DNA of 50,588 nt, taken from a virus. Lineage: Duplodnaviria; Heunggongvirae; Uroviricota; Caudoviricetes. Made by a program: the position numbers and the translations under genes. How positions within the stretch are numbered: the stretch's first letter is position 1; every line of letters begins with the position of its first letter. Under the pieces are notes generated by a model, which was given only the letters and a program-made list of their open reading frames with translations, had not been told where the DNA came from and did no database searches. The stretch spans positions 1 to 50,588 of the IMG/VR virus record IMGVR_UViG_2537561945_000005, one strand, 5' to 3'. Shown piece after piece: positions 1,459 through 49,429 of the stretch.

Positions 1459-2622
1459 TTACACATCATTAGTACCTTCCTTATTTTTTGACTGGGACAA
1501 ATTTGGGACCGATGGGTTCAGGATCGAGTCTATTTGCCGTGCGTGTTCGGTAAGGTGATTAGGTGCAAGGTGAGCATATCGACGAACCATTTCGATAGAC
1601 TCCCAGCCTCCCATTTCCTGTAACACTGACAACGGGACTCCGGCTTGAACCAGCCAACTTGCCCAGGTGTGTCTCAAGTCGTGAAATCTGAAATCATCAA
1701 TACCAGCCCGTCTCAGCGCCGCTTTCCAGGCTGTGTTTGCGTCATACCGCATCTTCCTTACTGTTGGCGCTTTCGTTCCGTCTGGTTTGGTACAGCTTTC
1801 CTTGTACACAAATACCCAACGGTGATGATTCCCGATTTGTTTTTTCAATACGCGACATGCAGTATCATTCAGCGCAACGCCAATTGCGCGGTTTGATTTA
1901 CTCTCTTCCGGGTTTATCCATGCCACCCGGCGCTGCATATCTATTTGTTGCCATTCAAGGTTGATGATGTTCGAGCGTCTTAAGCCTGTTGCCAGTGCAA
2001 ATTCAACAACAGACTTTAATGGCTCCGGACATTCATCAATCAGCCTTTGTGCTTCATGGGGCTCCAGCCAGCGGATCCGTTTATTCTTTGGTTGAGGCAC
2101 TTTAATAATTGGTGCCTTATCCAGCATTTTCCATTCACGCTCTGCGGCTCTTAGTAGGGCCTTTATAAATGAAAGATGCGTAGCCTTCGTTGCAACGGAC
2201 GCTGGTTTTGGCGTGTATTCTGGAACAGGTTTCCCTTTTTTTCTGCATGCTTCTGCCCTGAGTTTCCAGTTTTCCTCATGACGCCGGTTCGTCATTTTCT
2301 GCATTGCTGAATAAATTTTTGATTCAGTGATGTCTCTTAGTTGCATCCCTGCGAAATGTTGAAGCCAGAATCCGATCCGGCTTTTGTCATCGTCCAGTGA
2401 TTTCTTATGTGCTTTCTCTTCGAGCCACCTGACACACGCTTCCTCAAACGTCATATCAGGTATTTCACCAAGTTTGCTGACCCGCCATGCTTCAGCCTTT
2501 AGCTTGTCATGGAGCTCTGTCGCCTGCCTTTTGTCCTTTGTTCCAAGAGACTGTTTAAATCTTTTACCGTTCGGCAATGTGAAACTGGCGTACCATATTT
2601 CACTTCTGCGGAAGAGTGACAT
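1459..2622 (-). CDS. int: Tyrosine integrase, P22 Int type
   Basis: 387-aa protein near-identical over its length to my recollection of P22 integrase ([19 protein letters not shown]...[15 protein letters not shown]); its 3' end lies 15 bp from thrW. Confidence 0.9.
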
Positions 2623-7849: not shown

Positions 7850-8158
7850 TCATCTCGCCGTCAGTTGTTTTGATTTCCGGTAGCCTGCCGCGTAAATAGC
7901 TACGTTTGGCAGGCAAACACTTCCACTGCATTCATCTACTTTCTTGCAGCGAAGGCTTCCGAGTGATATTGCTTTTTCAGAAAGGCTTAACCGCTTTCTC
8001 GGGTCTTCCTGAACAGGTTCCTCACTGTCTGTGCCGAAGATCGAATCGATGATGTTGCAGATGGAATCACGCTCGATGGCCAGCTTTCTGCGCCGCTCAT
8101 GACGGCGAGTTTTGGCATTTCCTGCAAATGTTGATTTTCCGTACACGATTACCGTCAT
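7850..8158 (-). CDS. N: Antiterminator N, P22 gene 24 type
   Basis: MTVIVYGKSTFAGNAKTRRHERRRKLAIERD arginine-rich N-terminus matches P22 gp24 rather than lambda N; start at the internal Met, ORF extends to 8242. Confidence 0.8.
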   Translation of the reverse strand: MTVIVYGKSTFAGNAKTRRHERRRKLAIERDSICNIIDSIFGTDSEEPVQEDPRKRLSLSEKAISLGSLRCKKVDECSGSVCLPNVAIYAAGYRKSKQLTAR

Positions 8159-8276
8159 GATGTTTTCCTCATGTGAAATGGCTTTGGTGGTGATGCGCCA
8201 GATGCTGATCTTCTGGTTGCTGTCGTTACTGCTGCAATTCACATCACCCCAAACCCATCTCGTTTGGTATCTGTTC

Positions 8277-8310
8277 GCGCTTTGTCAGCGCATCATCGAA
8301 GTTAAAGAGC
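8277..8310 (-). promoter_or_regulatory. nutL (boxB 8277-8291, boxA ~8300-8310)
   Basis: Minus-strand reading gives GCTCTTTAAC (boxA-like) followed by GCGCTGACAAAGCGC, the P22-type boxB hairpin, just upstream of N. Confidence 0.7.
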
Positions 8311-8566
8311 CTGCCAATCTGTTCCGTTTGGCTGCCAGCGTCCTGCTGATGGTGATGATAATGAACCAATAGTTCGATATTATCAAGAACTATAAGTACG
8401 AATTGTTTGTGGTTCATTAACTTAATGGGATATGTTTTTGATATGTAAAGGAGTTTATTTTTGTAAAGATTGAAGATTGGTCAGTAGGAGAGAAAGAATT
8501 GTTTGCTGGCGTGTTAGTTCGTGGGTTAGCACATGTGCGGATGTTAAATAAGGTAGACGATCGTGA

Positions 8567-8596
8567 GGAAAAGAAAAACCGGCGCTGAGGCCGGGT
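8567..8596 (-). terminator. Rho-independent terminator ending the cI / rex-position transcript
   Basis: Minus-strand hairpin CCGGC-CTCAGC-GCCGG followed by a T-rich run, immediately downstream of the 8601-9500 ORF. Confidence 0.6.
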
Positions 8597-8600
8597 ATAA

Positions 8601-9500
8601 TTATTTGATTATTTCTTTTATAAAGACTTCTTTCGGTTGGTATTTTTTATCTGATGATTTGAGCTGGTACGTTATTGTTATATCAGCACGTACAGCAAAT
8701 TTACCTGCAAAATCTGATGGGTTTACGTTGGGGCCAAGAACCATATTTACTCTTCGATCTATTAATCCAGGGATAACAGCAGCCCAACCTTTCTCTGGAT
8801 TGTCGAGGTCTAATGCACGGATTTCAACATCAACATCAAAATGATCCTGAGTATATGACTCTGGTGTGAAGACAACTTCAGTTGGGGCTTTTTTAATGGT
8901 TTCAGCGGGAATGGTCACTGTACCACCCCCTGTACCTATGACCATCGTAGATCCTTCGTCTGCCCTAGCTGGGGCAAGCGTCTTAATGGAACTTTTGGCA
9001 AGAGTCTTCTTATTGGTTACCGTGCTTTCTATGATTGCTTGAAGACGGTCAGGTGAAATATTAGCCTCACCGGCACCAATATTGATGATTGTATTGTTAT
9101 TTGCTTCAAAGTGGGAGGTGTTGCTTGGAGCCATAGCCTTAGTTGCTAGAACTAAGCCATATCCAACCAGACCAATAACAACAGCACCAACGAGAGCGTT
9201 TCTCATTTTCCCATTTCCGATCTTTGCATGAGCGCCAGCAAGAAACTTGTCCATTTCTTCTTGGCTACCAAAGAGGAGTTTAATAACAATATCTTCATAA
9301 AGGCTTCCTGCTTCTAATCGCGCAACATGCACCGATATATCAAGGATATTAGCCCCTGTCAGTTCCTGCAAAACACCTTCTGATTGTTTTGCGATGGCCT
9401 CCCACCCTTGAAGGGAGGTAATCACATCTTTGATGCTTACAGGTTCTTTAGTTGAATAATATATGTTTTCGGTAAAGGTTAAAGATAATTCTTGGGACAT
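8601..9500 (-). CDS. Membrane protein in the rex position (candidate superinfection-exclusion or abortive-infection factor)
   Basis: 299-aa ORF directly downstream of cI on the same strand, where lambda carries rexAB; one central hydrophobic helix (ALVGAVVIGLVGYGLVLATKAMA); no family recognised. Confidence 0.6.
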   Translation of the reverse strand: MSQELSLTFTENIYYSTKEPVSIKDVITSLQGWEAIAKQSEGVLQELTGANILDISVHVARLEAGSLYEDIVIKLLFGSQEEMDKFLAGAHAKIGNGKMRNALVGAVVIGLVGYGLVLATKAMAPSNTSHFEANNNTIINIGAGEANISPDRLQAIIESTVTNKKTLAKSSIKTLAPARADEGSTMVIGTGGGTVTIPAETIKKAPTEVVFTPESYTQDHFDVDVEIRALDLDNPEKGWAAVIPGLIDRRVNMVLGPNVNPSDFAGKFAVRADITITYQLKSSDKKYQPKEVFIKEIIK

Positions 9501-9629
9501 CCGAGCCCTCGCTGTTTCTTTCGATTTGCTGTGTTAAGCTAATATTTTAATATCCATGTTTCTGTTTGCTTGCAGTGTGTTTCTCACCACCATCCAAACG
9601 TACTGGTTACTAGCTATGTGATGATGAAG

Positions 9630-10337
9630 TCATGAACTTTTCAGCCATTCCCTGGCCTCGATGTCATCTAGGTGGCGAGATTGCTTCAGAATACCAGCTA
9701 CATACTCCACCTTTGCTACTTGATGATAAGGCAACGTTATTGGCCTGTGGTCTTGGTTGATGCTTGTAAATTGGTATTCTCCGTCTCTGTCATAGCCAAG
9801 AACCTTGATCATGTTGTGCCCTTCAATGGTTCTGACAAACACCTCATCACCTGGGAATACTTTGGTGTTAGGCTCAATGAGTACATATTCTCCTGATTTT
9901 ATTCTGGGCCACATGCTGTCTCCTTTTACACGAAGACCAAAGGCATCTGGATCATCGCTATAAATCTTGAGCCACCCATCGCGCTCTTCGGTCATCTCGA
10001 TGGCACCATCAACACCAAGAATTGCCTCACCAACCACGCGCACTAACCCTTTTTTTAATTTGCCAACAATTGAAAAAGTATCTTCATCATTCGCTCCATT
10101 TAACGAAGTGCCGTGCTGAAGCCAAATAACATCAACGTTTAGAAATTTCGCAAGCGCATTCATTTTTTCCTGGCGTGGTAAAGACTCAGCATTAAACCAT
10201 TTGCTAACGCCTTTGGACGAAAGAGAAAGGGCACGGGCTATGGCCATTCCCCTACCATGTTCATCAAGACCAGCTTCTTTACAGGCTTGCGCTAGCCGCT
10301 GGGCGAATTCTTTGCGCACTTTTTCATTCTGAACCAT
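9630..10337 (-). CDS. cI: CI-type repressor with HTH and LexA-like S24 peptidase domain
   Basis: 235 aa with N-terminal HTH (GMAIARALSLSSKGVSKW) and C-terminal GDSMWP Ser/Lys autopeptidase motif; divergently arranged with cro. Confidence 0.85.
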   Translation of the reverse strand: MVQNEKVRKEFAQRLAQACKEAGLDEHGRGMAIARALSLSSKGVSKWFNAESLPRQEKMNALAKFLNVDVIWLQHGTSLNGANDEDTFSIVGKLKKGLVRVVGEAILGVDGAIEMTEERDGWLKIYSDDPDAFGLRVKGDSMWPRIKSGEYVLIEPNTKVFPGDEVFVRTIEGHNMIKVLGYDRDGEYQFTSINQDHRPITLPYHQVAKVEYVAGILKQSRHLDDIEAREWLKSS

Positions 10338-15227: not shown

Positions 15228-15312
15228 AGTCAGAGATAACAATCAACTAATACTGTTTTGTTGATTTTTGCTTGTAATTGGCGTTCTGGTCTGATTTTTG
15301 TGGAGTAAGTTG

Positions 15313-15696
15313 ATGCGTGATATTCAGATGGTTCTTGAGCGTTGGGGAGCGTGGGCGGCTAATAATCATGAAGATGTGACCTGGTCGTCCATTGCCGCCG
15401 GTTTTAAGGGATTAATTACTTCAAAAGTAAAATCTCGCCCGCAATGTTGTGACGATGACGCGATGATTATTTGCGGGTGCATGGCCCGTCTGAAAAAGAA
15501 CAACAGCGATTTGCACGATTTATTAGTAGATTATTATGTAGTCGGTATGACATTCATGTCACTGGCAGGTAAGCATTGCTGCTCTGATGGTTATATCGGG
15601 AAAAGGTTACAGAAGGCTGAGGGCATAATTGAAGGGATGTTAATGGCATTAGATATCCGGTTAGAGATGGATATCGTTGTTAATAACTCTAATTAA
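15313..15696 (+). CDS. Q: Late antiterminator Q, DLP12 QuuD / phage 21 type
   Basis: 127 aa [22 protein letters not shown]... matches DLP12 QuuD; sits upstream of the porin and lysis genes. Confidence 0.75.
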
Positions 15697-15885: not shown

Positions 15886-16983
15886 TTAGAACTGGTAAAC
15901 CAGACCTACAGCAACGATGTCATCAGTGCTTACACCGAGTGCTTTAGTGAAGTCATTTTTGTCAAGCAGGTTGATTTTGTAATCAACGAAAGTAGACATA
16001 TTTTTGTTGAAGTAATAGGTTGCACCTACATCAACATATTTGACTAAGTCCTGATCGCCCCATACTCCAAGATCCTTACCTTTAGATTGCAGGTAAGCAA
16101 CGGACGGACGCAGACCGAAATCGAACTGATATTGTGCAACAGCTTCGAAGTTTTGGGCTTTATTAGCAACGAAGTGATCAGCAAATACAGTCATATTCTG
16201 GGTTTCAGAATAGGTAGTGGCCAGGTAAATGTTGTTAGCGTCATATTTCAGACCTGCGGCCCAAACTTCTGCATTTTTACCGGAAGCAAATACTTCAGGA
16301 AGAACTTTCCCTGCATTAACTTGAGTGTCGGTACGATCAGATTTCGCATAAGTTGCACCGATACCGAATCCTTCGTATTCATAGGTAGCAGAGAAACCGA
16401 AGCCATCACCGTTACCTTCAGTGTAGTTATCGAAATCGCTACGATCGTTTTTGCCTTGGTACTGAGCAGCAAAGTTCAGACCATCAACCAGACCAAAGAA
16501 GTCGTTGTTACGATAGGTTGCAACACCAGTTGCACGTTGAGTCATGAACACGTCGGTTTGAGTCCAAGTGTCACCACCGAATTCTGGCAGGACGTCAGTC
16601 CACGCACCGATGTCGTATGCTACACCGTAGTTACGGCCGTAATCGATGGAGCCGTAGTCACCGAATTTCAGGCCAGCGAAGGCAAGACGGGTTTTATCTT
16701 TGGAGGAACCTTGAGATTCAGCGCGGTTGCCTTTGAATTCATATTCCCACTGACCGAAACCAGTCAGTTGATCGTTGATTTGGGTTTCACCTTTGAAGCC
16801 AAGACGGGCATAAGTAGTATCACCATCATCTGCATCATTAGAGGAGAAGTAGTGCTTAGCATTAACTTTCCCGTACAGATCCAGCTTGTTACTGTCTTTA
16901 TTATAAATTTCAGCTGCCTGAGCAGACATCGCCATCAGTACTGATGCAGCTACAGCAGAAATTGCCACTGTTAATTTTTTCAT
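15886..16983 (-). CDS. nmpC: Outer-membrane general porin, NmpC/Lc (OmpC family), intact
   Basis: 366 aa with signal peptide [23 protein letters not shown] and C-terminal ...VGLVYQF; OmpC/OmpF-type beta-barrel; same location as nmpC in DLP12. Confidence 0.85.
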
Positions 16984-17189
16984 CGTGAGCCCTTTTTTTG
17001 AACTATTATTAAAAAATGATGTCACTGCGCGATAAATATTCATCTAATCAATGTGATTATTTCAAGATGTAAGTTTTGGTTTCTCGTTTGATTTGTGAAG
17101 TAGATCTCTATTTTTATCTGAACTTTTTTCTATCGAATCCTATTCATGGCTCTTTGCTGAATAAAAATAAATCTATTAGCCAATTTATA

Positions 17190-30005: not shown

Positions 30006-31838
30006 ATGGCTGAATTTGAGCTTAAGGCGTTGATCACCGGTGTCGACAGGCTTTCTCCCGCGCTGTCGAAAATGCAAAAGAAAATCCGGGGATTTAAACG
30101 CCAGGCGGAAGAAGCGTCACAGGGTGGGCTGGCGCTTGGTGGCGGACTGGCAGCGGGTCTGACGCTTTCCCTGAAATCTTATGCTGATCAGGAAAACGCC
30201 GCCACCGGGCTGAAAGTCGCCATGATGGATGCGAACGGCGAGGTTGGAAAGAGCTTTCAGGACATCAATAAACTGGCTATTGGCCTGGGTAACCAGCTAC
30301 CCGGTACAACGGCTGATTTCCAGAACATGATGCAGATGCTGGTGCGTCAGGGGATCCCGGCAGAAAACATTCTTGGTGGTGTGGGTAAAGCGACAGCTTA
30401 TCTTGCGGTACAACTGAAAAAAACACCGGAAGCGGCTGCTGAGTTTGCCGCAAAGATGCAGGATGCTACCGGAACGGCCTCAGAAGACATGATGGGGCTG
30501 TTCGACACAATTCAGAAGGCGTTTTATCTGGGCGTGGACGATACCAACATGCTGTCATTCTTCACTAAAACCAGCTCTGTTCTGAAGATGGTGAATAAGG
30601 ACGGTCTTCAGGCTGCACAGAGTCTTGCCCCCATCAGTGTCATGATGGATCAGATGGGGATGAACGGGGAGTCGGCAGGTAATGCCCTGCGAAAAGTTAT
30701 CCAGTCCGGATTAAGCGTTAAGAAAATCAGGGACGTCAATAAAATCATGGCCCGCCAGAAACTCGGGGTACAGCTCGATTTTACTGATGGCAAAGGGAGT
30801 TTTGGCGGTCTTGATAACATGTTCAGGCAACTGGCAAAGCTGCGAAAACTGACCGACGTTAAGCGAACCGGTGTACTTAAGGCAATATTTGGTGATGATG
30901 CCGAAACCCTTCAGGTGGTCAATGCACTAATCGATAAAGGAAAGGATGGCTACGATCAGATCCAGCAGAAGATGAATAAACAGGCCAGCCTGAATAAACG
31001 TGTTCAGGCTCAGCTTGGTACGCTGTCCAACCTGTGGGAGGCAATGACGGGGACCGCAACTAACGGCCTTGCGGCTATTGGCGGCGCATTTTCTGGTGAC
31101 GCTAAGAACATCACGCAGTGGCTGGGGGAGTTGGGGGAGAAATTCACGAAGTTTGCGGATGAAAATCCCCGGGTTATTCGCGGCGTCGTCGGGCTTGCTG
31201 CCGGTCTTGCGATTCTGAAACTGGGATTGATGGGCGTGGGCAGTGCCATCAGCATTGTCAGCAGGATCATGTCGATGACGCCGATTGGCATGATTGCGAC
31301 GGCGATAGCCCTGGCTGCGGGATTAATTATCACTAACTGGGATGTTGTCGGACCTTATTTCAAGAAGCTCTGGGAAACCATTGGTCCTTATTTTGAGGCT
31401 GGCTGGGAACTCCTTAAGAAAGTTTTTGCCTGGTCGCCGCTGGGGATGGTGATCAATAACTGGGGACCGGTTGTTAAGTGGTTTCAGGATATGTGGGATA
31501 AGCTGAAGCCGATTATTGAATGGTTTACCGACAGTTCCGGTGACACGGTCGATACCATTAACTCGGCGCAGTGGGGCGCGGGTGCTTATGATGCTTATGG
31601 GACGGGAATACCGGCACGGGGATACACGCCTTATCCGGCGGTGGATCCGGCTCAGGCAAACAACGCCTCCGATGCCACAGGCTCGAATCCCTTCATGATT
31701 AATAAAGCTACCGCGCCAAAAGTTGATGGTGAGATCAAGGTATCATTTATAAATATGCCACCAGGTATGCGGGTTACGGAAACACGCTCCAGTGGCATTG
31801 ATATAAATCACGATGTTGGCTATACCCGATTTTGGTAG
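30006..31838 (+). CDS. Tail tape measure protein
   Basis: 610 aa, alpha-helical and Ala/Gly-rich with hydrophobic segments, after the chaperone frameshift pair. Confidence 0.85.
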   Translation: MAEFELKALITGVDRLSPALSKMQKKIRGFKRQAEEASQGGLALGGGLAAGLTLSLKSYADQENAATGLKVAMMDANGEVGKSFQDINKLAIGLGNQLPGTTADFQNMMQMLVRQGIPAENILGGVGKATAYLAVQLKKTPEAAAEFAAKMQDATGTASEDMMGLFDTIQKAFYLGVDDTNMLSFFTKTSSVLKMVNKDGLQAAQSLAPISVMMDQMGMNGESAGNALRKVIQSGLSVKKIRDVNKIMARQKLGVQLDFTDGKGSFGGLDNMFRQLAKLRKLTDVKRTGVLKAIFGDDAETLQVVNALIDKGKDGYDQIQQKMNKQASLNKRVQAQLGTLSNLWEAMTGTATNGLAAIGGAFSGDAKNITQWLGELGEKFTKFADENPRVIRGVVGLAAGLAILKLGLMGVGSAISIVSRIMSMTPIGMIATAIALAAGLIITNWDVVGPYFKKLWETIGPYFEAGWELLKKVFAWSPLGMVINNWGPVVKWFQDMWDKLKPIIEWFTDSSGDTVDTINSAQWGAGAYDAYGTGIPARGYTPYPAVDPAQANNASDATGSNPFMINKATAPKVDGEIKVSFINMPPGMRVTETRSSGIDINHDVGYTRFW

Positions 31839-31866
31839 CCAGGATTCCCCTCACATGTATTGCTGG

Positions 31867-31894
31867 TTGTAAGTCATAAATAGAGTGATAGAAT
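31867..31894 (+). promoter_or_regulatory. Sigma70-like promoter of the tail-module moron (TTGTAA-16-TAGAAT)
   Basis: -35 TTGTAA at 31867-31872, 16-bp spacer, -10 TAGAAT at 31889-31894, about 36 bp upstream of the moron ATG. Confidence 0.5.
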
Positions 31895-31929
31895 TAATGC
31901 ACATTTAGAAAAATGTTAATAGGCGAAAA

Positions 31930-32460
31930 ATGAAAGGCTATATCACAGCAAGTGTAATTCTTGGAGCAGCGGCTATTTTTTCATCTCTCATAATCTCTGG
32001 CAACATCTCCTTTAAAGATGAACATATTATTCAGTTATCTGGAGGAGCCATAAAACTTGGTGATGTTTATAAAGAAAATAAATTGATAAGTGCAAAGATT
32101 ATTTTTCCAGATAATCAGGGTGAACAGATTCTTGTTGTCGACGGCAATCCTGAAAACTTTAAGGAGGATTTTCAGGAGAAATTAAATAAAGTAATAAAAA
32201 CTTTAAATGCGTCAAAGAAAAAAGATGAAGAGAAAGTTAGCCTGGATAATTTAAGTGTTATTGAAGAGTCTAAACTAGAGCTCGTTTCTGCGGTGCGTTA
32301 CTCTGCTCAGTATGTTCCTATGTTTACTCTGACGCTGGACAAAAAAGAAATTACCATGCCTAAAAATACGGTAATATTTCCATTTGCCAGCGATGAAACA
32401 GCTAAGTATTTAAATGAACAACAGCAAAAGTATAAAGATTCGTTGTTTCTGACTCGCTAA
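31930..32460 (+). CDS. Moron: secreted or membrane-anchored protein of unknown function
   Basis: 176 aa with N-terminal hydrophobic segment (ITASVILGAAAIFSSLIISG), Lys/Glu-rich; AT-rich codon usage unlike flanking tail genes. Confidence 0.6.
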   Translation: MKGYITASVILGAAAIFSSLIISGNISFKDEHIIQLSGGAIKLGDVYKENKLISAKIIFPDNQGEQILVVDGNPENFKEDFQEKLNKVIKTLNASKKKDEEKVSLDNLSVIEESKLELVSAVRYSAQYVPMFTLTLDKKEITMPKNTVIFPFASDETAKYLNEQQQKYKDSLFLTR

Positions 32461-32478
32461 TTAATAAAATTCATTACA

Positions 32479-32510
32479 AGGCCACCTTCTAATAGGTGGC
32501 TTTTTTATTT
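32479..32510 (+). terminator. Rho-independent terminator of the moron
   Basis: GCCACC-TTCTAATA-GGTGGC followed by TTTTTTATTTT. Confidence 0.7.
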
Positions 32511-32521
32511 TCGGAGTGTAT

Positions 32522-33850
32522 ATGACGTGGAAAGACAGGCTTCAGGATGCGTCATTTCGAGGTGTGCCGTTTAAGGTTGAAGAAGAAAGTGCGGGAACCG
32601 GCCGTCGTGTGGAAACACACGAATATCCGAACCGCGACAAACCCTATACCGAAGATCTGGGAAAAGTCACTTTCCGCCCGTCCATCACGGCTTATGTGGT
32701 GGGAGATGACTGCTTTGACCAGCGCGATCGCCTGATTGACGCGCTGAATAAACCCGGTCCCGGCACGCTTGTCCACCCGACATACGGTGAGCTGAAAGTC
32801 TGTGTTGACGGGGAAGTTCGGGTCAGCACATCGAAGAGTGAAGGGCGTATTGTCCGCTTTGACCTGAAGTTTGTCGAAGCGGGAGATCTCTCTTACCCCA
32901 CATCAGGCGTGGCGACGGCGCAGACGCTGATGTCATCCTGTTCTGCACTGGATGACTGCATCAGTGACAGCTTCAGCGGTTTCAGTATCGATGGCGTGGC
33001 GGATTTTGTGCAGAACGACGTTATCGGTAATGCCAGCACAATGCTTGGGTATGTTTCTGATGCGATGAAAGTGGTGGATTCTGCCGTATCGGATGCCGCC
33101 AGGCTGTTGCAGGGGGATATCTCGGTACTTCTGCCGCCACCATCGTCAGGCAAAAATTTCGTTGAGCAGGTGCAGAAAATGTGGCGTACCGGGAAACGCC
33201 TTTATGGTAACGCCAGCGACCTGGTCACCATGATCAAAACGCTTTCCGGTGTCAGCCTCGGCAGCGATCTGCAACCGCGCGGCGTCTGGAAAACGGACAG
33301 TAAAACCACCGCCACGGCGACGCAGCAGCGTAACGTGGTTGCCAGCATCCTTCGTACGACCGCAATCAGCGAAGCGGCGTATGCCGTCACCCGATTGCCT
33401 GCGCCAACAACTTCCGCGGTGATGCAGAATGCCGCAGTGGGGCAGGCAACAACACCCGCGCAGAGCACTGACTGGCCTTCCGTCACGCATCCGGCACTGA
33501 ACAATGCTCCGGCGGTGAAAAGCACGGTTGACCTGCCGACGTGGGAAGAACTGACTGACATTCGCGACACACTGAATACGGCAATTGATAAGGAGTTGTC
33601 CCGTACAACCAGTGATGCGCTGTTTCTGGCGCTGCGCCGGGTGAAAGCAGATCTGAATGCGGATATCAACACGCGCCTTGAACAGTCTGCACGGATCATT
33701 CAGCGCACGCCGGATGAGGTTTTACCCGCGCTGGTGCTGGCGGCGACCTGGTTTGATAACGCGGCGCGTGATGCGGACATTATCCGGCGTAATGCCATTA
33801 CGCATCCCGGCTTTGTGCCGGTGATCCCTCTGAAGGTGCCAGTGCAATGA
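32522..33850 (+). CDS. DNA circularisation protein (Mu gpN type)
   Basis: 443 aa following the tape measure gene; GGAG RBS. Confidence 0.75.
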   Translation: MTWKDRLQDASFRGVPFKVEEESAGTGRRVETHEYPNRDKPYTEDLGKVTFRPSITAYVVGDDCFDQRDRLIDALNKPGPGTLVHPTYGELKVCVDGEVRVSTSKSEGRIVRFDLKFVEAGDLSYPTSGVATAQTLMSSCSALDDCISDSFSGFSIDGVADFVQNDVIGNASTMLGYVSDAMKVVDSAVSDAARLLQGDISVLLPPPSSGKNFVEQVQKMWRTGKRLYGNASDLVTMIKTLSGVSLGSDLQPRGVWKTDSKTTATATQQRNVVASILRTTAISEAAYAVTRLPAPTTSAVMQNAAVGQATTPAQSTDWPSVTHPALNNAPAVKSTVDLPTWEELTDIRDTLNTAIDKELSRTTSDALFLALRRVKADLNADINTRLEQSARIIQRTPDEVLPALVLAATWFDNAARDADIIRRNAITHPGFVPVIPLKVPVQ

Positions 33851-38926: not shown

Positions 38927-39796
<870 letters not shown>

Positions 39797-39927: not shown

Positions 39928-41266
39928 CATAAGCGCTAACTTAAGGGTTGTGGTATTACGCCTGATATGATTTAACGTGCCGATGAATTACTCTCACGAT
40001 AACTGGTCAGCAATTCTGGCCCATATTGGTAAGCCCGAAGAACTGGATACTTCGGCACGTAATGCCGGGGCTCTAACCCGCCGCCGCGAAATTCGTGATG
40101 CTGCAACTCTGCTACGTCTGGGGCTGGCTTACGGCCCCGGGGGGATGTCATTACGTGAAGTCACTGCATGGGCTCAGCTCCATGACGTTGCAACATTATC
40201 TGACGTGGCTCTCCTGAAGCGGCTGCGGAATGCCGCCGACTGGTTTGGCATACTTGCCGCACAAACACTTGCTGTACGCGCCGCAGTTACGGGTTGTACA
40301 AGCGGAAAGAGATTGCGTCTTGTCGATGGAACAGCAATCAGTGCGCCCGGGGGCGGCAGCGCTGAATGGCGACTACATATGGGATATGATCCTCATACCT
40401 GTCAGTTCACTGATTTTGAGCTAACCGACAGCAGAGACGCTGAACGGCTGGACCGATTTGCGCAAACGGCAGACGAGATACGCATTGCTGACCGGGGATT
40501 CGGTTCGCGTCCCGAATGTATCCGCTCACTTGCTTTTGGAGAAGCTGATTATATCGTCCGGGTTCACTGGCGAGGATTGCGCTGGTTAACTGCAGAAGGA
40601 ATGCGCTTTGACATGATGGGTTTTCTGCGCGGGCTGGATTGCGGTAAGAACGGTGAAACCACTGTAATGATAGGCAATTCAGGTAATAAAAAAGCCGGAG
40701 CTCCCTTTCCGGCACGTCTCATTGCCGTATCACTTCCTCCCGAAAAAGCATTAATCAGTAAAACCCGACTGCTCAGCGAGAATCGTCGAAAAGGACGAGT
40801 AGTTCAGGCGGAAACGCTGGAAGCAGCGGGCCATGTGCTATTGCTAACATCATTACCGGAAGATGAATATTCAGCAGAGCAAGTGGCTGATTGTTACCGT
40901 CTGCGATGGCAAATTGAACTGGCTTTTAAGCGGCTCAAAAGTTTGCTGCACCTGGATGCTTTGCGTGCAAAGGAACCTGAACTCGCGAAAGCGTGGATAT
41001 TTGCTAATCTACTCGCCGCATTTTTAATTGACGACATAATCCAGCCATCGCTGGATTTCCCCCCCAGAAGTGCCGGATCCGAAAAGAAGAACTAACTCGT
41101 TGTGGAGAATAACAAAAATGGTCATCTGGAGCTTACAGGTGGCCATTCGTGGGACAGTATCCCTGACAGCCTACAAAACGCAATTGAAGAACGCGAGGCA
41201 TCGTCTTAACGAGGCACCGAGGCGTCGCATTCTTCAGATGGTTCAACCCTTAAGTTAGCGCTTATG
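39928..41266 (+). mobile_element. IS186 (IS4 family), complete, with 10-bp target-site duplication
   Basis: 1339-bp element with terminal inverted repeats CATAAGCGCTAACTTAAGGGTTG and direct repeats GGGCAAATCC at 39918-39927 and 41267-41276; target has the GGGG-N6-CCCC pattern. Confidence 0.9.
39983..41095 (+). CDS. insL: IS186 transposase InsL
   Basis: 370 aa from MNYSHDNWSAILAHIGK..., matching E. coli IS186 InsL. Confidence 0.9.
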   Translation: MNYSHDNWSAILAHIGKPEELDTSARNAGALTRRREIRDAATLLRLGLAYGPGGMSLREVTAWAQLHDVATLSDVALLKRLRNAADWFGILAAQTLAVRAAVTGCTSGKRLRLVDGTAISAPGGGSAEWRLHMGYDPHTCQFTDFELTDSRDAERLDRFAQTADEIRIADRGFGSRPECIRSLAFGEADYIVRVHWRGLRWLTAEGMRFDMMGFLRGLDCGKNGETTVMIGNSGNKKAGAPFPARLIAVSLPPEKALISKTRLLSENRRKGRVVQAETLEAAGHVLLLTSLPEDEYSAEQVADCYRLRWQIELAFKRLKSLLHLDALRAKEPELAKAWIFANLLAAFLIDDIIQPSLDFPPRSAGSEKKN

Positions 41267-43155: not shown

Positions 43156-43315
43156 CAAACTCTTCCCAAGTCTACCGAAATCAACTAAAAGCTCGTATAC
43201 TGCGGTTTCTGGCCCGTATCTTATCTCCTGTTATCAACTAGACTCAACCGAAATCAAGTCGCAGTTGGGGGCATAAGTGGGGGCATTTTGTGTTCGGTCT
43301 AGGGAGATGCCCCCA

Positions 43316-44524
43316 ATGAAACTTAATGCGCGACAGGTAGACGCAGCTAAACCCAGAGAGAAAGCCTATAAGCTGGCAGATGGTGCTGGTTTGTATCTTG
43401 AGGTTGTTCCCTCTGGTTCCAGATACTGGCGGATGAAATATCGCTTCAATGGAAAAGAGAAGCGTATGGCCTTTGGTGTCTATCCGGCAGTGTCCCTTGC
43501 ACAAGCGAGGGCACTGCGTGACGACGCCAAGAAAAAGCTTGCCGAAGGTATCGATCCATCGCTTGCCAAGAAAGAAGAAAAGCTGGTTCGAGATGTGCAG
43601 CTAAATAATACGTTTCAGGCTGTGGCACTTGAATGGCATGGAACGAAGGTGAGCCGATGGTCAGAAGGTTATGCCTCGGACATTATCGAAGCCTTTAATA
43701 AAGATATTTTTCCCTATATTGGCCAACAACCGGTGAATGAAATCAAACCGCTGGTTCTGCTTAATGTGCTGCGTCGAATTGAAAGCCGTGGCGCGACAGA
43801 GAAGGCCAAGAAGGTTCGCCAGCGTTGCAGCGAAGTCTTTCGTTACGCCATCGTAACCGGTCGTGCGGAATACAATCCTGCAGCGGATCTTACCAGCGCG
43901 ATGTCAGGGCATGAATCGAAGCATTATCCCTTCCTTACTGTTGAGGAGTTACCAGACTTTTTTAAAGCTCTCGCAGGCTACACAGGAAGCCCGTTAGTTG
44001 TTCTTGCGGCACGTCTGCTGATCCTCACGGGAGTTCGCACTGGCGAACTCCGAGGTGCTTTCTGGAGTGAGTTTGATCTTGAAAAAGCGGTGTGGGAGAT
44101 ACCTGCCGAGCGTATGAAGATGAAACGGCCTCACCTTGTCCCCCTCTCTACCCAAGCGCTGGAAATCGTACAGCAACTCAAAGTGATGTCAGGGCAATAT
44201 CCACTGGTGTTCCCGGGACGTAATGATCCCCGCAAGACGATGAGTGAAGCGAGTATTAATCAGGTTTTTAAGCGGATTGGATATACGGGGAGGGTAACGG
44301 GGCATGGTTTCCGTCACACGATGAGTACGATTTTGCATGAGGAAGGTTTCAATACAGCGTGGATTGAAACCCAGCTGGCTCACGTTGATAAAAATGCGAT
44401 TCGTGGGACGTATAACCATGCGTTGTATTTGGAAGGACGTAGGGAGATGATGCAGTGGTATGCGGACTATATAAACGCTAATCATAATTCATGTATTTCT
44501 TTGCTGGTGAACGCTACAAAGTAG
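43316..44524 (+). CDS. int: Tyrosine integrase, P4 type
   Basis: 402 aa with N-terminus MKLNARQVDAAKPREKAYKLADGAGLYLEVVPSGSRYWRMKYRFNGKEKRMAFGVYP and C-terminal R..HxxR..Y catalytic region; adjacent to the tRNA-derived att copy. Confidence 0.85.
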   Translation: MKLNARQVDAAKPREKAYKLADGAGLYLEVVPSGSRYWRMKYRFNGKEKRMAFGVYPAVSLAQARALRDDAKKKLAEGIDPSLAKKEEKLVRDVQLNNTFQAVALEWHGTKVSRWSEGYASDIIEAFNKDIFPYIGQQPVNEIKPLVLLNVLRRIESRGATEKAKKVRQRCSEVFRYAIVTGRAEYNPAADLTSAMSGHESKHYPFLTVEELPDFFKALAGYTGSPLVVLAARLLILTGVRTGELRGAFWSEFDLEKAVWEIPAERMKMKRPHLVPLSTQALEIVQQLKVMSGQYPLVFPGRNDPRKTMSEASINQVFKRIGYTGRVTGHGFRHTMSTILHEEGFNTAWIETQLAHVDKNAIRGTYNHALYLEGRREMMQWYADYINANHNSCISLLVNATK

Positions 44525-44765
44525 ATTTGACGTGATGATAGGATTGATTAGGAAAATGACCTAAAACCGTATATTTTGATACTTAAGTTTAAACATTAGC
44601 CCTATATCCGATCGCCCTTTGTTACCTACACTTCTATCTTTTTTAGGTTCTAGGGCTGAAAGATTTGAAGATAAGTTTATAAATATCAATAGATTACATG
44701 ATTGTGTTGGTTCTTGGGTAGCCGTAACGCCTAGGGCGGTAGCGTACTTAAGATGAGTATAAAAA

Positions 44766-45974
44766 ATGAACAGTAACTATATGCCATTCACACAACGAGA
44801 TAGTCTCGGAAGATACTATACAAAAGAATCCATAAGTGCATTATTGGTTTCTCAGATGAAAGCTGAAAAAGTCAATAATATTATTGATTTAGCTTCTGGT
44901 GAGGGGAGCTTAACCTATGCTGCTTTAGACCGATGGAAGAATGCAGAAGCATATTCTTTGGATATAGAATCTCGGATGTCAAAAAAAGTATGTGATAATC
45001 TTACTCATATTGTAACAGATGCCCTTGTTCATTCATTTCCTGAAATGCTTGCCCGACATCAAGGAAATTTTGATGTTGCAGTATGTAATCCTCCATTCAC
45101 TCTCCCTGAATGGAGGGATGATTATTTTAAAATCATTAGTGAGATTGGCGCAGATAAATATATATCTGTCTCAAAATATGTCCCAGCAGAGATAATATTT
45201 ATATCTCAAGTCATCAGGTTTCTTAAAAAGGGCGGTGAGGCTGGAATAATTTTACCTGATGGTATATTTACAGCAAGAAAGTTTATAGGTTTAAGACGAT
45301 ATTTATTGAATGAACATTCAATTACAAAAGTCATTGAATTGCCTAGGAATATCTTCAAAAGGACAGAGGCTAAAACACATATTTTAATTTTTAATAAAAA
45401 AATTATGCCTCATCATAAAATACAATTACATTGTATAACTAAAGATGGGGAATTGTCGCCTCCTGTTTTAATTAGAAAAGAAGATGCGGTTGAGAGAATG
45501 GACTACTCTTATCATTATAATAAAAATGAAGGTAAAGGGTTTAGCACAATAGGGATGCTTAAAAACATTTCAATTTTTAGAGGTAGGTTTAATTCAAAGG
45601 AAATTACGGAACATGTTTTTCATACGACAAAATTTAGTGGTGATGAAAAGTACATTAAATTCCACTGCAACTCTGTAGAAGAATTGAAGCCATCAAAATT
45701 AGATGTCATTGCTAAGCCTGGTGATATATTAATAGCAAGAGTTGGGCGAAATTTTCATAAAAAAATATTGTTTGTTGAGAGCGGCTATTCTTATATCAGT
45801 GACTGTATTTTTCTGATACGAGCCTCTGGTGGAGATAAGAAAAAACTATTTGATTTTCTTTGTTCTCAAGATGGGCAAGAGGAATTATCTCGAGCGAGTA
45901 GTGGTGTAGCCGCACAACATATTACAATGGATGCATTAAAAAAAATACATCTTGTAAGGATTAAACATGACTGA
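44766..45974 (+). CDS. N6-adenine DNA methyltransferase, gamma class (M.TaqI-like layout: catalytic domain plus C-terminal putative TRD)
   Basis: Motif X GRYYTKESI, motif I IIDLASGEGSL and motif IV NPPF in N-to-C order within the first ~115 aa; ~200-aa C-terminal domain; AT-rich. Confidence 0.75.
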   Translation: MNSNYMPFTQRDSLGRYYTKESISALLVSQMKAEKVNNIIDLASGEGSLTYAALDRWKNAEAYSLDIESRMSKKVCDNLTHIVTDALVHSFPEMLARHQGNFDVAVCNPPFTLPEWRDDYFKIISEIGADKYISVSKYVPAEIIFISQVIRFLKKGGEAGIILPDGIFTARKFIGLRRYLLNEHSITKVIELPRNIFKRTEAKTHILIFNKKIMPHHKIQLHCITKDGELSPPVLIRKEDAVERMDYSYHYNKNEGKGFSTIGMLKNISIFRGRFNSKEITEHVFHTTKFSGDEKYIKFHCNSVEELKPSKLDVIAKPGDILIARVGRNFHKKILFVESGYSYISDCIFLIRASGGDKKKLFDFLCSQDGQEELSRASSGVAAQHITMDALKKIHLVRIKHD

Positions 45975-47673
45975 TGTGGAATTAGATAGTAATTTTCTTA
46001 TCGAGGAACGAGCTGATTATATTGATGAGGATACGATAAAAAATAATACTATCAGATCTGGAGAGTTTTTCGATATTATACATAATGCTCTTATATCCCC
46101 AGGCATCAAACTTATAGTTGGTCCTAGGGGATGTGGTAAAACACATTTGATGCGTTATGCTTGGGTTGAATGTAAAAACGATGATAACGCACCATTACCA
46201 CTCTATGTTTCTTTTAATAAATATTTTAAGTTAGAGCCGCTTTTAAAAAATAAACCAAATGCAATTGATCTCTTTCATAAATGGGTATTAGCAAAGATAC
46301 TACTCTCTGCTTATGAAATTGCTTGCGATATTGAAGATTCTGAATATCTTGATTTGTCAACGATACTCATAGCGGATAAAGAGTTCCTAATTAATTTAAT
46401 CGTAAGGCTTGAGCAGGGTCTTTCGCCATCATTAGAACAAGAAAACATTGTTCAATTGATCAGTGTTTCTTCTGTCATATCCTCGTTGAGTTCACTATGT
46501 GATTGGCTTGAACGTAAAAGAGTCATTATTTTATTAGACGATGCAGCAATAAGCTTAACTCCTGAATATCTTTACGAGTTTTTTGATATTGTACGTAGTC
46601 TAAAAACCTCAAAAATAGCTTTAAAGGCATCGGTTTATCCTGGAACAACCGAATATGGCCCAAGGTTTCATGTTGCTCATGATGCTGAAACAATTGATGC
46701 TTGGATTTCGGTACAGCACCCTAATTATTCCTCAGTGATGGATGCTATAGCGCAGGCAAGGTTTCCTGGGTATGATGGCATTCCGGATGACTTGAAAGAG
46801 TTATTTAAATTCTCAGCATTTGGTATTCCACGTTCTTTTTTGATGATGTTAAGAGATTATCAAACAACTTTAAGTCAGACAACTCAGCAAAAATTTAATA
46901 AAATAATTGAAAGGTATGTTGAGCTTAGACTCAGCGAATACAGTTCACTAAAAGATAAGCTACCTCGATTGTTTGACATTGTTTCATTAGGTGAATCACT
47001 TTTATTAAAAGTAGTCGAATTACTCAAGGAAAGTAACTCCCAATATAAAGAAGAGAAACAAGTCATAATCGGTATAGAGAAAAATGATAATGTTTATTTT
47101 TCTCGACTCACTAAGCTATTAATTGAAACAGGGCTTTTTTATAATCTTCCTGATATTTCTCATGGTGATGGGCGTACTTATGAAAGATATATACCTCATT
47201 ATGCTTTATTAATAAAGGAAAGAGTGTTTAACGAAGGAAGTAGAGGTTTTTCTCCTTCTCAGATTATTCAAAAAATACTAAGAAAGAATGCTAAGCATCC
47301 TGTCAGAAGAAACATTTCATCATTATTCAATGCTGAGCAACTTGCGAGACTTAAACTAACTTTACCTCCATGCAATAACTGCAAGACTCCGCGATTGACT
47401 GACAATCAAAAATTTTGCCATCATTGTGGGAATCAATTGATTGATGAGTCGGCCTATAATCAGTGCATGTCTATTCCACTGTCAAAAGTACCACATCTAA
47501 CATCTTGGCAAATGCAAAAACTATCTGGGCTGGAAAAAGTAAAAACTATAGGAGATGTATTGTCTTTACAAGACCCTGGGAGTGAGTTAAGAAAAATTCA
47601 CAGAATAGGACCCAAAATTGCCAATAAAATTATGGACAAAGTGTTATTACATGTTGAAGAGTTTTTGTCTTAA
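45967..47673 (+). CDS. P-loop NTPase with C-terminal zinc ribbon and helix-hairpin-helix
   Basis: Walker A GPRGCGKTHLMR, Walker B VIILLDDAA, C-terminal CNNCK...CHHCG and HhH-like IHRIGPKIANKI; 8-nt overlap with the methyltransferase gene. Confidence 0.7.
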   Translation: MTDVELDSNFLIEERADYIDEDTIKNNTIRSGEFFDIIHNALISPGIKLIVGPRGCGKTHLMRYAWVECKNDDNAPLPLYVSFNKYFKLEPLLKNKPNAIDLFHKWVLAKILLSAYEIACDIEDSEYLDLSTILIADKEFLINLIVRLEQGLSPSLEQENIVQLISVSSVISSLSSLCDWLERKRVIILLDDAAISLTPEYLYEFFDIVRSLKTSKIALKASVYPGTTEYGPRFHVAHDAETIDAWISVQHPNYSSVMDAIAQARFPGYDGIPDDLKELFKFSAFGIPRSFLMMLRDYQTTLSQTTQQKFNKIIERYVELRLSEYSSLKDKLPRLFDIVSLGESLLLKVVELLKESNSQYKEEKQVIIGIEKNDNVYFSRLTKLLIETGLFYNLPDISHGDGRTYERYIPHYALLIKERVFNEGSRGFSPSQIIQKILRKNAKHPVRRNISSLFNAEQLARLKLTLPPCNNCKTPRLTDNQKFCHHCGNQLIDESAYNQCMSIPLSKVPHLTSWQMQKLSGLEKVKTIGDVLSLQDPGSELRKIHRIGPKIANKIMDKVLLHVEEFLS

Positions 47674-47743
47674 TTTTGATGGCATGTACTTGTCAATCGT
47701 GTCTTTCTTATCTGAAAAGTTTAATTTAAAAAGAGTCGGGAAA

Positions 47744-48739
47744 ATGGAACTAGAATCAAAAGAGGATTATGAAGAGACCACTCATCATAATGTGGCGTCC
47801 TCAGTTGTCACTGCAACCCATGATAACTTAGATGGAAGAGAGTTTTTTGAACTATGTAGTAATCCAGCTCTAGTTTTTTCGTTTGAGACACACAAAAAAT
47901 TTAATGAGTTACCTGTTGATAGCAAGGAATCCCCGTTAGATCTTTTTATAGCTAATACAAAGCAACTTCACTTGTTAAGATCTGGTGATATTTCAAACAC
48001 ATTAAGCCATCTGTTGTTATTAGGTTATGTGTCTGCAGCCGAAAGTTATTTGCGAGCTCTTATCAGAAATCTAATTAATCATGATGAATATATACAGTCT
48101 ATAGTTTCTGATAAGGCCGTTAGTTATGCAGCGGCACAACACCATAAAAAGGAGTTATTACCAGAAGCTTTACTTGAGGACTTTTCATTGGCAAGCCCTT
48201 ATAATGTTTTTGAAACATTAAAGGACATTATTGGAATGAAAGGACAACGACCAATCGAAATGATGAAATGCTCAAGCGAATTCATGAAAGTTTGCGAGTT
48301 AAGGCATTGTTGTGTTCATCGATTTGGTAAGTTGGGTTCGAAAAATGCAATCCGACTAGGATTGGCTGAACATATGAAGCACTTAGAAAAACCGATAATA
48401 CTCAATAATGATGATCTCGAGCAAATCGCATTTATTGTTGAGAATTTTATTAGAACTTTGAATAATACCGTTTTCAAATTTATAATTAATCGTACAGTTG
48501 AGAACAAAAATAAGGAAAAAGGAGGGGAAAGACTATATGATTCTGAATGGACATGGGTGTTTGAAAAAGATATAAGTCGATACGAAAAGTATTATTCAAT
48601 ATTTAGTGCCAAAAACGATACCCTTCCCGGATTATCATTACAGGATTCATATCAACTTTTTGTTAATGCATATAAGCCTAAACTTCCTGCAAGAAAAAAT
48701 AAAAAAAAACTGAAGAAAATTAACGCCACTACTATCTGA
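47744..48739 (+). CDS. Hypothetical protein, third operon gene (possible HEPN-like R-x4-H motif)
   Basis: ~331-aa ORF after the ATPase; contains ELRHCCVHRFGK fitting R-x4-H in a predicted helical context; upstream in-frame starts at 47618 and 47684 are possible. Confidence 0.55.
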   Translation: MELESKEDYEETTHHNVASSVVTATHDNLDGREFFELCSNPALVFSFETHKKFNELPVDSKESPLDLFIANTKQLHLLRSGDISNTLSHLLLLGYVSAAESYLRALIRNLINHDEYIQSIVSDKAVSYAAAQHHKKELLPEALLEDFSLASPYNVFETLKDIIGMKGQRPIEMMKCSSEFMKVCELRHCCVHRFGKLGSKNAIRLGLAEHMKHLEKPIILNNDDLEQIAFIVENFIRTLNNTVFKFIINRTVENKNKEKGGERLYDSEWTWVFEKDISRYEKYYSIFSAKNDTLPGLSLQDSYQLFVNAYKPKLPARKNKKKLKKINATTI

Positions 48740-48925: not shown

Positions 48926-49429
48926 TTATTGATAGTGTTTTATGTTCAGATAATGCCCGATGACCTTGTCATGCAGCTCCACCGATTTTGAGAACGACAG
49001 TGACTTCCGTCCCAGCCTTGCCAGATGTTGTCTCAGATTCAGATTATGTCGCTCAATGCGCTGAGTGTAACGCTTGCTGATAACGTGCAGCTTTCCCTTC
49101 AGGCGTGATTCATACAGCGGCCAGCCATCCGTCATCCATACCACGACCTCAAAGGCCGACAGCAGGCTCAGAAGACGCTCCAGTGTGGCCAGAGTGCGTT
49201 CACCGAAGACGTGCGCCACAACCGTCCTCCGTATCCTGTCATACGCGTAAAACAGCCAGCGCTGACGTGATTTAGCACCGACGTAGCCCCACTGTTCGTC
49301 CATTTCAGCGCAGACAATCACATCACTGCCCGGTTGTATGCGCGAGGTTACCGACTGCGGCCTGAGTTTTTTAAGTGACGTAAAACCGTGTTGAGGCCAA
49401 CGCCCATAATGCGTGCACTGGCGCGACAT
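48926..49429 (-). CDS. insB: IS1 transposase InsB
   Basis: 167 aa matching IS1 InsB. Confidence 0.88.

Follow-up and report, generated by a model that had tools for sequence, protein, structure and literature searches.

The window analysed in this work is the whole stretch of 50,588 nucleotides (nt) of the IMG/VR virus record IMGVR_UViG_2537561945_000005 (Caudoviricetes), and all coordinates are positions of that window. The locus of interest is the junction between the tail tape-measure gene and the gene of a DNA_circ_N protein (Mu gp43/N-like, hereafter gpN). An open reading frame (ORF), hereafter the cargo ORF, is located at this junction (31930-32460, + strand). It begins 91 nt past the tape-measure stop codon and ends 61 nt ahead of the gpN gene. 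The first-pass annotation had placed an ORF of 176 amino acids (aa) between tape-measure and DNA-circularisation genes, and the ORF as well as the Pfam matches of both flanks (PF10145 and PF07157) agree with that placement (Table 1). The guanine-cytosine (GC) content of the cargo ORF is 0.343 and its GC at third codon positions (GC3) is 0.299, compared with 0.516-0.581 and 0.57-0.65 for six neighbouring tail genes (sheath, tube, tape measure, gpN, gpP, and gpQ), which bears out the deviant composition that had been described for this gene. Within the structural module (about 20-38 kb), the sole low-GC stretch is the cargo cassette. Its parts are a spacer ahead of the gene that holds the extended -10 promoter-like site, a single ORF, and the intrinsic terminator, all in line with the late operon.

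The cassette is optional at this junction. The closest isolated phages are the serotype-converting phages SfV, SfII, and SfI and the Escherichia phages SKA5 and 689R6, with flanks that are ~96% identical to those of the window. Both flanks match at this level in SfV, SfII, SfI, and vB_EcoM-689R6, where the matched span is 2,181 nt compared with 2,801 nt in the window. The junction is 60 nt long in the phages without a cassette and 683 nt long in the window, so that ~620 nt are missing. The 60-nt junction of SfII consists only of a hairpin terminator that was annotated by the depositors. The cargo gene is not required for a working tail because SfV, SfII, and SfI, which lack it, have been isolated as phages (PMC3772137; see also PMC3636060). 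Both flanks are present in ~1,093-1,099 complete Escherichia coli genomes (n=5,426), and the cassette is present in 172-174 (about 3%). An alignment against related prophages had been proposed as a check of presence and absence, and it places the gap at the same junction in SfV, SfII, SfI, 689R6, UTI89, and most E. coli prophages of this type. A conserved tail part of similar composition, the outcome that would have contradicted the first-pass annotation, was not what we found: carriers have an AT-rich island at this site and isolated phages do without the gene.

These observations also bear on the possibility that the product is an overlooked conserved tail component, such as a chaperone or a tip protein. 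The fixed position between the tape-measure and hub genes in many diverged prophages would suit such a component. However, the gene is absent from most of the phage group including isolated phages, its product has a predicted N-terminal transmembrane helix, all lineages examined show a foreign composition of the gene, and its place can be taken by unrelated proteins. No match to a tail-protein family was found either, as there is no Pfam tail family among the results and the PHROG match is annotated as 'unknown function'. A structural or assembly role in the tail is very improbable.

Junction types were determined from an evenly spaced sample of the ranked E. coli genomes, followed by inspection of examples. 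The empty junction of 60 nt is the majority of the sample and includes UTI89 and O157:H7 strains. The SKA5-type cargo (166-170 aa) has a classic cleavable signal peptide, is found in 84 genomes, and has a homologue in Pantoea phage AH07. The OB-fold cargo (148 aa) has an N-terminal transmembrane helix, and its gene runs against the direction of the tail operon; its examples are found in E. coli T16R (L099, 632-1078, - strand) and UMNK88, where a GC-rich hairpin is located directly after the tape-measure stop codon. The bPH_1 PH-domain cargo (125 aa) is also found in Edwardsiella phage EPP-1. The lipoprotein cargo (225 aa) has the lipobox LLGGC. All junction cargos have a GC content of 0.31-0.42 and 4 of the 5 are envelope-targeted. 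With at least five AT-rich cargos that alternate with one another or with a terminator alone, the junction is a hot spot.

The boundaries of the cassettes differ between the two sides. The right homology edge between junction types is sharp and is located at the gpN Shine-Dalgarno (SD) sequence and ATG. The left edge is gradual: identity is 94-100% in upstream parts of the tape-measure gene but drops to 76-80% over its final ~100 nt, which are also far more divergent than the beginning of gpN. The C-terminal residues of the tape-measure protein (31740-31838 region) are cassette-specific (FW, FR, FGR, HIGR, and FGMGG). A sharp right edge together with a decaying left edge fits the exchange of cassettes by recombination within the flanking genes. 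The E. coli cassette is at least 99% identical in 179 of 181 records, and the flanks are 90-99% identical. The literature that was searched holds no description of the tape-measure/DNA_circ_N junction as a cargo site, nor of the cargo protein. The tail module of a Leclercia prophage (L005, 10013-11808) carries two extra genes of 503 aa and 94 aa between DNA_circ_N and the gpP-like hub gene, with no Pfam match and a GC content of 0.48-0.49. The window has no genes at that position, which is therefore a second variable site in the tail module.

The terminator that follows the cargo ORF has a stem at 32478-32503 with 10 pairs (5 of them G-C) and a T-run that extends to about 32513, with a free energy of -15.6 kcal/mol. 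A strong intrinsic terminator had been claimed for this position, and at the level of the sequence the claim holds. A terminator was found at every cassette type and at the empty junction, and the stem sequence differs by type. Each same-strand cassette has its own hairpin terminator immediately ahead of the conserved gpN ribosome-binding site. The presence of a terminator is a property of the site, and what is proper to the cassette is the sequence alone. The view of the terminator as the own part of the moron thus stands for the stem sequence, which is cassette-specific, but not for the presence of a terminator, since empty sites have one too. Only sub-threshold leader-like matches were obtained for the terminator from Rfam.

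The sigma-70-type promoter-like site consists of the -35 hexamer TTGTAA (31867-31872), a 16-nt spacer, and the -10 hexamer TAGAAT (31889-31894), with TG at 31886-31887. It is located 35 nt ahead of the cargo ATG and implies a transcript start near 31901. The sequence, coordinates, and 16-nt spacing of the promoter in the first-pass annotation were exact, but 'near-consensus' was too strong for a site that agrees with the consensus at 9 of 12 positions plus TG. An equal promoter score is reached by 3.2% of shuffles of the 91-nt spacer. Promoter-like matches are not enriched over the 10-kb region, where 6 were found compared with 6.9 expected from shuffles. The promoter hexamers exhibit zero variation across 72 E. 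coli copies. The orthologous locus L087 has a stronger site (TTGTCA-16-TATAAT) at the same distance, and a strong site is also present in L089. A cassette promoter is plausible from the sequence, short of proof. Two further elements were noted in this region: an upstream ORF of 6 codons (MLIGEK; 31913-31933, + strand), the TGA of which overlaps the cargo ATG (ATGA), and an antisense promoter-like site within the cargo ORF (32003-31975, - strand; TTGCCA-17-AAAAAT with TG). Either of them may have arisen by chance in DNA this rich in AT.

The cassette exhibits the features of a moron sensu Juhala/Hendrix and Cumby 2012, namely extra DNA, deviant composition, and its own terminator, together with the promoter-like site described above. 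Genes by which temperate phages alter their hosts are typically carried as morons. The cassette is very probably an accessory moron at a cargo hot spot, and the earlier moron interpretation is supported as essentially right as far as the sequence is concerned.

The cargo protein belongs to phrog_5485 ('unknown function'), with residues 1-176 aligned to profile positions 1-176 (E 3.8e-108). The UniProt entry A0A0K4SSD4_ECOLX (WP_000679479.1), annotated as 'hypothetical protein', belongs to the same family, and the names given to the protein in databases are 'hypothetical' or 'uncharacterized' throughout. No match to Pfam or NCBIfam was obtained for the protein. A word-indexed search identified only close relatives (99% identity in E. 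coli and 52-58% in Leclercia and Lelliottia). An exhaustive profile search identified 77 representative clusters at E<=1e-3, and nearly all of them are 165-195 aa in length. Pfam scans of 65 aligned family members gave zero matches and no common family. Two motifs are conserved among the 65 aligned members, which are G39-x3-L43-G44-x-V-Y47-x-E49 and Y124-x-S-E-x2-P-x-F-x-L-T-L. The family is common yet has no assigned function: an identical protein is encoded in the reference strain H10407 of enterotoxigenic E. coli (ETEC), and the exact protein is found in about 3% of complete E. coli genomes and on over 1,000 public contigs.

The N-terminus is hydrophobic in all 65 aligned members. The Kyte-Doolittle maximum over 19 residues is 2.11 at residue 5. 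The N-terminus of the cargo protein lacks a lipobox as well as a clear AXA cleavage site. The body of the protein is 30% charged and has an isoelectric point of 5.6 and no Cys. An AlphaFold2 (AF2) model from the alignment of 65 sequences has a predicted local distance difference test score (pLDDT) of 90.6 and a predicted template modelling score (pTM) of 0.75. It supersedes an earlier run with 14 close sequences that gave a pLDDT of 62.9 and no transmembrane helix. The model consists of a helix (3-22), strands (32-36, 39-44, 46-59, and 66-72), and a helix (74-93), followed in the C-terminal half by strands (114-126 and 132-143) and a helix (149-171). The model thus predicts, with high confidence, a transmembrane helix at the N-terminus and after it a compact alpha/beta domain of ~150 aa. 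The hydrophobic anchor or signal and the charged body that had been read from the translation are both borne out by these results. A hydrophobic stretch of 20 residues is long for a cleaved signal peptide, and a signal anchor with a periplasmic body is therefore the likeliest topology on the model.

A structural homology search had been suggested for this protein. Foldseek gave zero matches at E<1e-3 against PDB with the AF2 model, and a profile search of PDB sequences gave zero below E 0.3, so that there is no convincing PDB fold match. Foldseek against BFVD gave one match, to a protein of 144 aa from Pseudomonas phage ventosus that is named 'Lipoprotein' (E 1e-6, TM 0.53/0.63). This match was counted for the envelope reading because the ventosus protein is an envelope protein too. 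The cargo is probably a membrane-anchored envelope protein.

The cargo ORF is under purifying selection. The 72 full-length E. coli copies represent 35 alleles, with 14 synonymous and 8 nonsynonymous segregating sites. Comparison of 111 synonymous and 417 nonsynonymous sites gives a ratio of nonsynonymous to synonymous polymorphism (pN/pS) of about 0.15. The full-length ORF is present in 72 of 79 sampled copies. Among the relatives found in the word-indexed search, some copies are truncated (P0004, P0005, and P0007). A non-functional hitch-hiker, that is, decaying foreign DNA with chance matches to a promoter and a terminator, would account for these truncated copies and for promoter-like matches that do not exceed those of shuffles. 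Such an origin is scarcely credible in view of the pN/pS and of the intact copies, and also of homologues with conserved motifs down to about 22% identity and a confident AF2 fold.

Homologues with at least 30% identity and readable context are all located directly upstream of DNA_circ_N in a Mu-like tail module. They include Leclercia (L005-L008, 53%), Edwardsiella anguillarum (L009, 41%), and viral contigs (L087 and L089, 59% and 55%), as well as L091 (38%), L092 (34%), and L095 (30%). The tube, gpN, and gpP of L092 are only 24-30% identical to their counterparts in the window. The cargo is AT-rich compared with its flanks in every orthologous locus read (GC 0.31-0.42 compared with 0.46-0.60). 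A terminator follows the cargo in L005, L091, and L092, which were the loci examined for it. Pairwise identity of the cargo correlates with that of gpN over its 100 N-terminal residues (Spearman 0.84, 21 non-independent pairs). Since the homologues are at the same junction and their divergence tracks gpN, the gene has travelled with the junction for a long time. On the sequence comparison, the cassette has long been a facultative resident of this cargo hot spot and did not arrive recently. The description of the gene as 'dropped into' a structural operon stands insofar as the cassette is optional AT-rich extra DNA, but a recent arrival is at variance with homologues of 30-59% identity at the same junction. 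Deviant composition here marks a long-standing accessory gene, which qualifies the common assumption of recent insertion. The low GC would be explained either by exchange among these phages within an AT-rich pool or by the maintenance of low GC itself.

One distant member (P0059, 186 aa) adjoins a gene of the Rap1a family of type VI secretion system (T6SS) immunity proteins on a lone metagenomic contig of 1.3 kb (L098; the two genes are at 89-418, - strand, and 501-1061, + strand), a single case that gives no basis for an interpretation. Searches of 50,697 isolated phage genomes (blastn and tblastn) gave zero copies of the cargo gene. Matches in 'plasmid' records of 19-64 kb resembled excised phage circles at first sight, but CP088862.1 has IS26, AraC, and non-phage genes and is not counted as evidence of an active phage.

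The conservation of position also bears on a role in the lytic cycle, where an accessory protein would be made mainly from the late transcript and the promoter-like site would be incidental. Such a protein might block ejection into the dying cell or debris by progeny (like T5 Llp), tune lysis or the periplasm, or help its own phage in genome delivery or at the tail tip. The gene is co-oriented with the late operon and downstream of the Q antiterminator gene, its position beside the tape-measure and gpN genes is kept down to 30-34% identity with a divergence that tracks gpN, several orthologues have only a weak promoter or none, and the terminators at empty junctions mean that the terminator need not be that of the moron. 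However, the isolated phages SfV, SfII, and SfI dispense with the gene, the OB-fold cargo on the minus strand is outside the late transcript and indicates that the site hosts independently transcribed genes, and sustained AT-richness is typical of morons rather than of late genes. A lytic-cycle accessory role of this kind is an unlikely account of the gene.

The best explanation as a whole is a self-contained moron cassette for an envelope protein that is expressed in the lysogen, with superinfection exclusion as the leading guess at its function, and we give this full combination a little less than an even chance. The cargo protein would be located in the inner membrane as a signal-anchored protein (N-in, C-out) with its domain in the periplasm, and its most likely function would be an action at the envelope that benefits the lysogen or the phage. 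In the lysogen, the cassette promoter alone would fire and the terminator would shield the baseplate genes from that transcription. After induction, Q-modified polymerase would read through the terminator and the cargo protein would also be made late. Late read-through is inferred because the window has a Q gene and the biology of lambdoid Q proteins is established. Expression of the cargo in the lysogen, as judged from these sequence features, is somewhat favoured over its absence. Superinfection exclusion as the specific function is put forward tentatively, by analogy, and the protein would then interfere with the tail tip of an incoming phage or with the delivery of its DNA across the periplasm and inner membrane. 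Envelope proteins are enriched among the alternative cargos, which points in the same direction as exclusion.

The closest precedent is the moron of phage HK97 that encodes gp15; the work on it is reportedly that of Juhala et al. in 2000 and Cumby et al. in 2012. Envelope-located exclusion proteins that act at entry are known from other phages too, namely T4 Sp and Imm, P22 SieA, T5 Llp, phi80/HK022 Cor, and Streptococcus Ltp. HK97 gp15, the product of a promoter-ORF-terminator moron beside the tape-measure gene, inserts into the inner membrane and keeps phage genomes from entering, an effect that depends on the tail (PMC3594210). The cargo cassette resembles the gp15 moron in being a cassette of deviant composition in the tail operon, adjoining the tape-measure gene and absent from close relatives. 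The N-terminal transmembrane segment is also shared, as a prediction in the case of the cargo. The two differ in that gp15 has 62 aa and almost no extramembrane domain whereas the cargo is predicted to have a folded domain of ~150 aa, and in that gp15 is encoded upstream of the tape-measure gene in a siphovirus whereas the cargo is encoded downstream of it, in a contractile-tail module of the Mu type. What gp15 does has been shown, while the function of the cargo is suggested by analogy. The layout of an N-terminal anchor and a periplasmic domain is like that of T4 Sp as generally known (see also PMC3594210 and PMC10883804). The cargo is outside the gp15 and T4 Sp families, and the likeness is architectural, with no fold match among solved structures.

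Several observations weigh against lysogenic expression and superinfection exclusion by the cargo. The exclusion function is a tentative proposal drawn from analogy and topology only, and no homology of the cargo protein to any known exclusion or defence protein was found. PADLOC-DB 2.0 gave zero matches at E<=1 for the cargo protein and three alternative cargos. There is no sequence relation to gp15, since hhalign of the deep family alignment gave a probability of 0.2% and E 0.37. Distant members of the family (<=25% identity) are located on short contigs beside genes of gluconate dehydrogenase, thioredoxin, and a Rap1a immunity protein; the fold is therefore neither confined to phages nor tied to phage exclusion. 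The N-terminal segment of the cargo protein may be cleaved as a signal peptide. On the side of expression, the promoter-like site departs from the consensus as described above, and no comparable site was found at the threshold used in the upstream regions of the cargo in L005, L091, and L092. DNA with a GC content of 0.34 is of the kind that is silenced by H-NS in E. coli, and the cassette promoter may be off under many conditions through H-NS. Co-orientation with the late operon makes a purely lytic-phase role equally compatible with the anatomy. A literature search with the accession and the locus tag gave nothing on the cargo protein or its expression.

The envelope location could also serve the host, as a lysogenic-conversion factor by which the surface or periplasm of the lysogen is altered. 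Examples of such fitness effects are serum, bile, or colicin resistance, adhesion, and envelope stress tolerance, like those of lambda Bor and Lom. The anatomy of a moron and the targeting to the envelope fit this role equally, and a porin moron is present elsewhere in this prophage, between Q and the lysis genes. E. coli from many hosts (ETEC H10407 included) carry the cassette, and morons with such roles are documented (PMC3594210). However, no similarity to known virulence or fitness factors was found, and the strict linkage to the tail junction across Leclercia, Edwardsiella, and environmental metagenomes fits a function centred on the phage better. A contribution to host fitness is on the whole an improbable function for the cargo. 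Returning to exclusion, a joint reading goes further: the cargo would found a new class of injection-blocking proteins with an unseen periplasmic fold that has coevolved with the Mu-like tape-measure/hub junction, the junction would be a dedicated hot spot for the exchange of envelope-acting anti-phage cargo, and AT-richness would be selected, for example for expression gated by H-NS. This combination is rather doubtful. The interchangeable cassettes, at least five and mostly envelope-targeted, are a compact panel of candidate exclusion or conversion genes, for which the empty junctions are natural isogenic controls.

The window contains a complete-looking SfV-like prophage, in which the regulatory half is lambdoid and the contractile tail is Mu-like. 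The features of the cassette, its flanks, and the regulatory genes of the prophage are shown in Table 1.

Table 1. Features of the cargo cassette and of the surrounding prophage, with positions in the 50,588-nt window.
Feature	Position	Strand	Description
Integrase	1459-2622		
CI-like repressor	9630-10337		
Q antiterminator	15298..15696	+	PF06530, E 4e-53
Porin gene, full-length	15886-17043	-	Porin_1, E 6e-157
Tail tape-measure gene (left flank)	30006..31838	+	610 aa; PF10145, E 1.3e-26
Cassette upstream spacer	31839..31929	+	91 nt; promoter-like site, weak SD (AGG 31921-31923), upstream ORF
Sigma-70-type promoter-like site	31867..31894	+	TTGTAA-16-TG-a-TAGAAT, extended -10
Cargo ORF	31930..32460	+	ATG start, 176 codons/aa; putative membrane-anchored protein, phrog_5485
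Predicted N-terminal transmembrane helix (signal anchor)	31936..31995	+	codons 3-22; AF2 helix, Kyte-Doolittle maximum 2.11
Intrinsic terminator	32478..32513	+	GGCCACCT...AGGTGGCC hairpin, then TTTTTTATTTT
DNA_circ_N (Mu gp43/N-like) gene (right flank)	32522..33850	+	PF07157, E 4e-34

Further genes of the prophage are Dam, NinX, and RusA, lysozyme and Rz, and terminase, portal, and HK97-type capsid. SfII likewise has Q (PMC3772137). The region matches chromosomal sequences at 100% identity in E. coli BE311, F41, and K99S and at 99% in ETEC H10407. The gpN gene is followed by Gp44/P-like, gp45-like, gp46, Baseplate_J, and gp48-like genes. The start of the gpN gene is GTG 32516 in the ORF list and ATG 32522 in the annotations of SfII, SKA5, and RefSeq. 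A conserved CGGAGTnTAT (SD CGGAGTnTATATG) is located upstream of ATG 32522, which is probably the true start.

The porin gene is located in an AT-rich stretch, on the minus strand between Q and the lysis genes (17771 onward). A moron site is known at this place in SfV-like phages and was described for SfIV orf47-49, a low-GC insert with transcription signals on its flanks (PMC3851460). This site belongs to the same phage group and follows the same logic as the cargo cassette, at a different junction. The porin gene is a second moron of the prophage, at the site already described in SfIV, and the related record CP088862.1 has different genes at the Q/lysis site. An ORF of 299 aa without a Pfam match (8601-9500, - strand) is located beside the CI-like repressor in an AT-rich segment (8101-9972) and is a candidate for a prophage-expressed accessory gene of the immunity region. 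A protein of 274 aa with a LEM-3-like GIY-YIG nuclease domain (38927-39751, - strand) is encoded close to where the prophage ends, just past the genes for tail fibre and assembly.

The region outside the prophage carries a second integrase (43277-44524, + strand), an N6-DNA methylase (44766-45974), and an ORC/CDC6-like ATPase (45967-47673), with a 373-aa protein without a family match encoded downstream of the ATPase (47618-48739). The GC content of the 43277-48739 region is down to about 0.28-0.30, and insertion sequence (IS) elements flank it (39977-41095; IS1 48926-49429). This region looks like a small integrative defence island.

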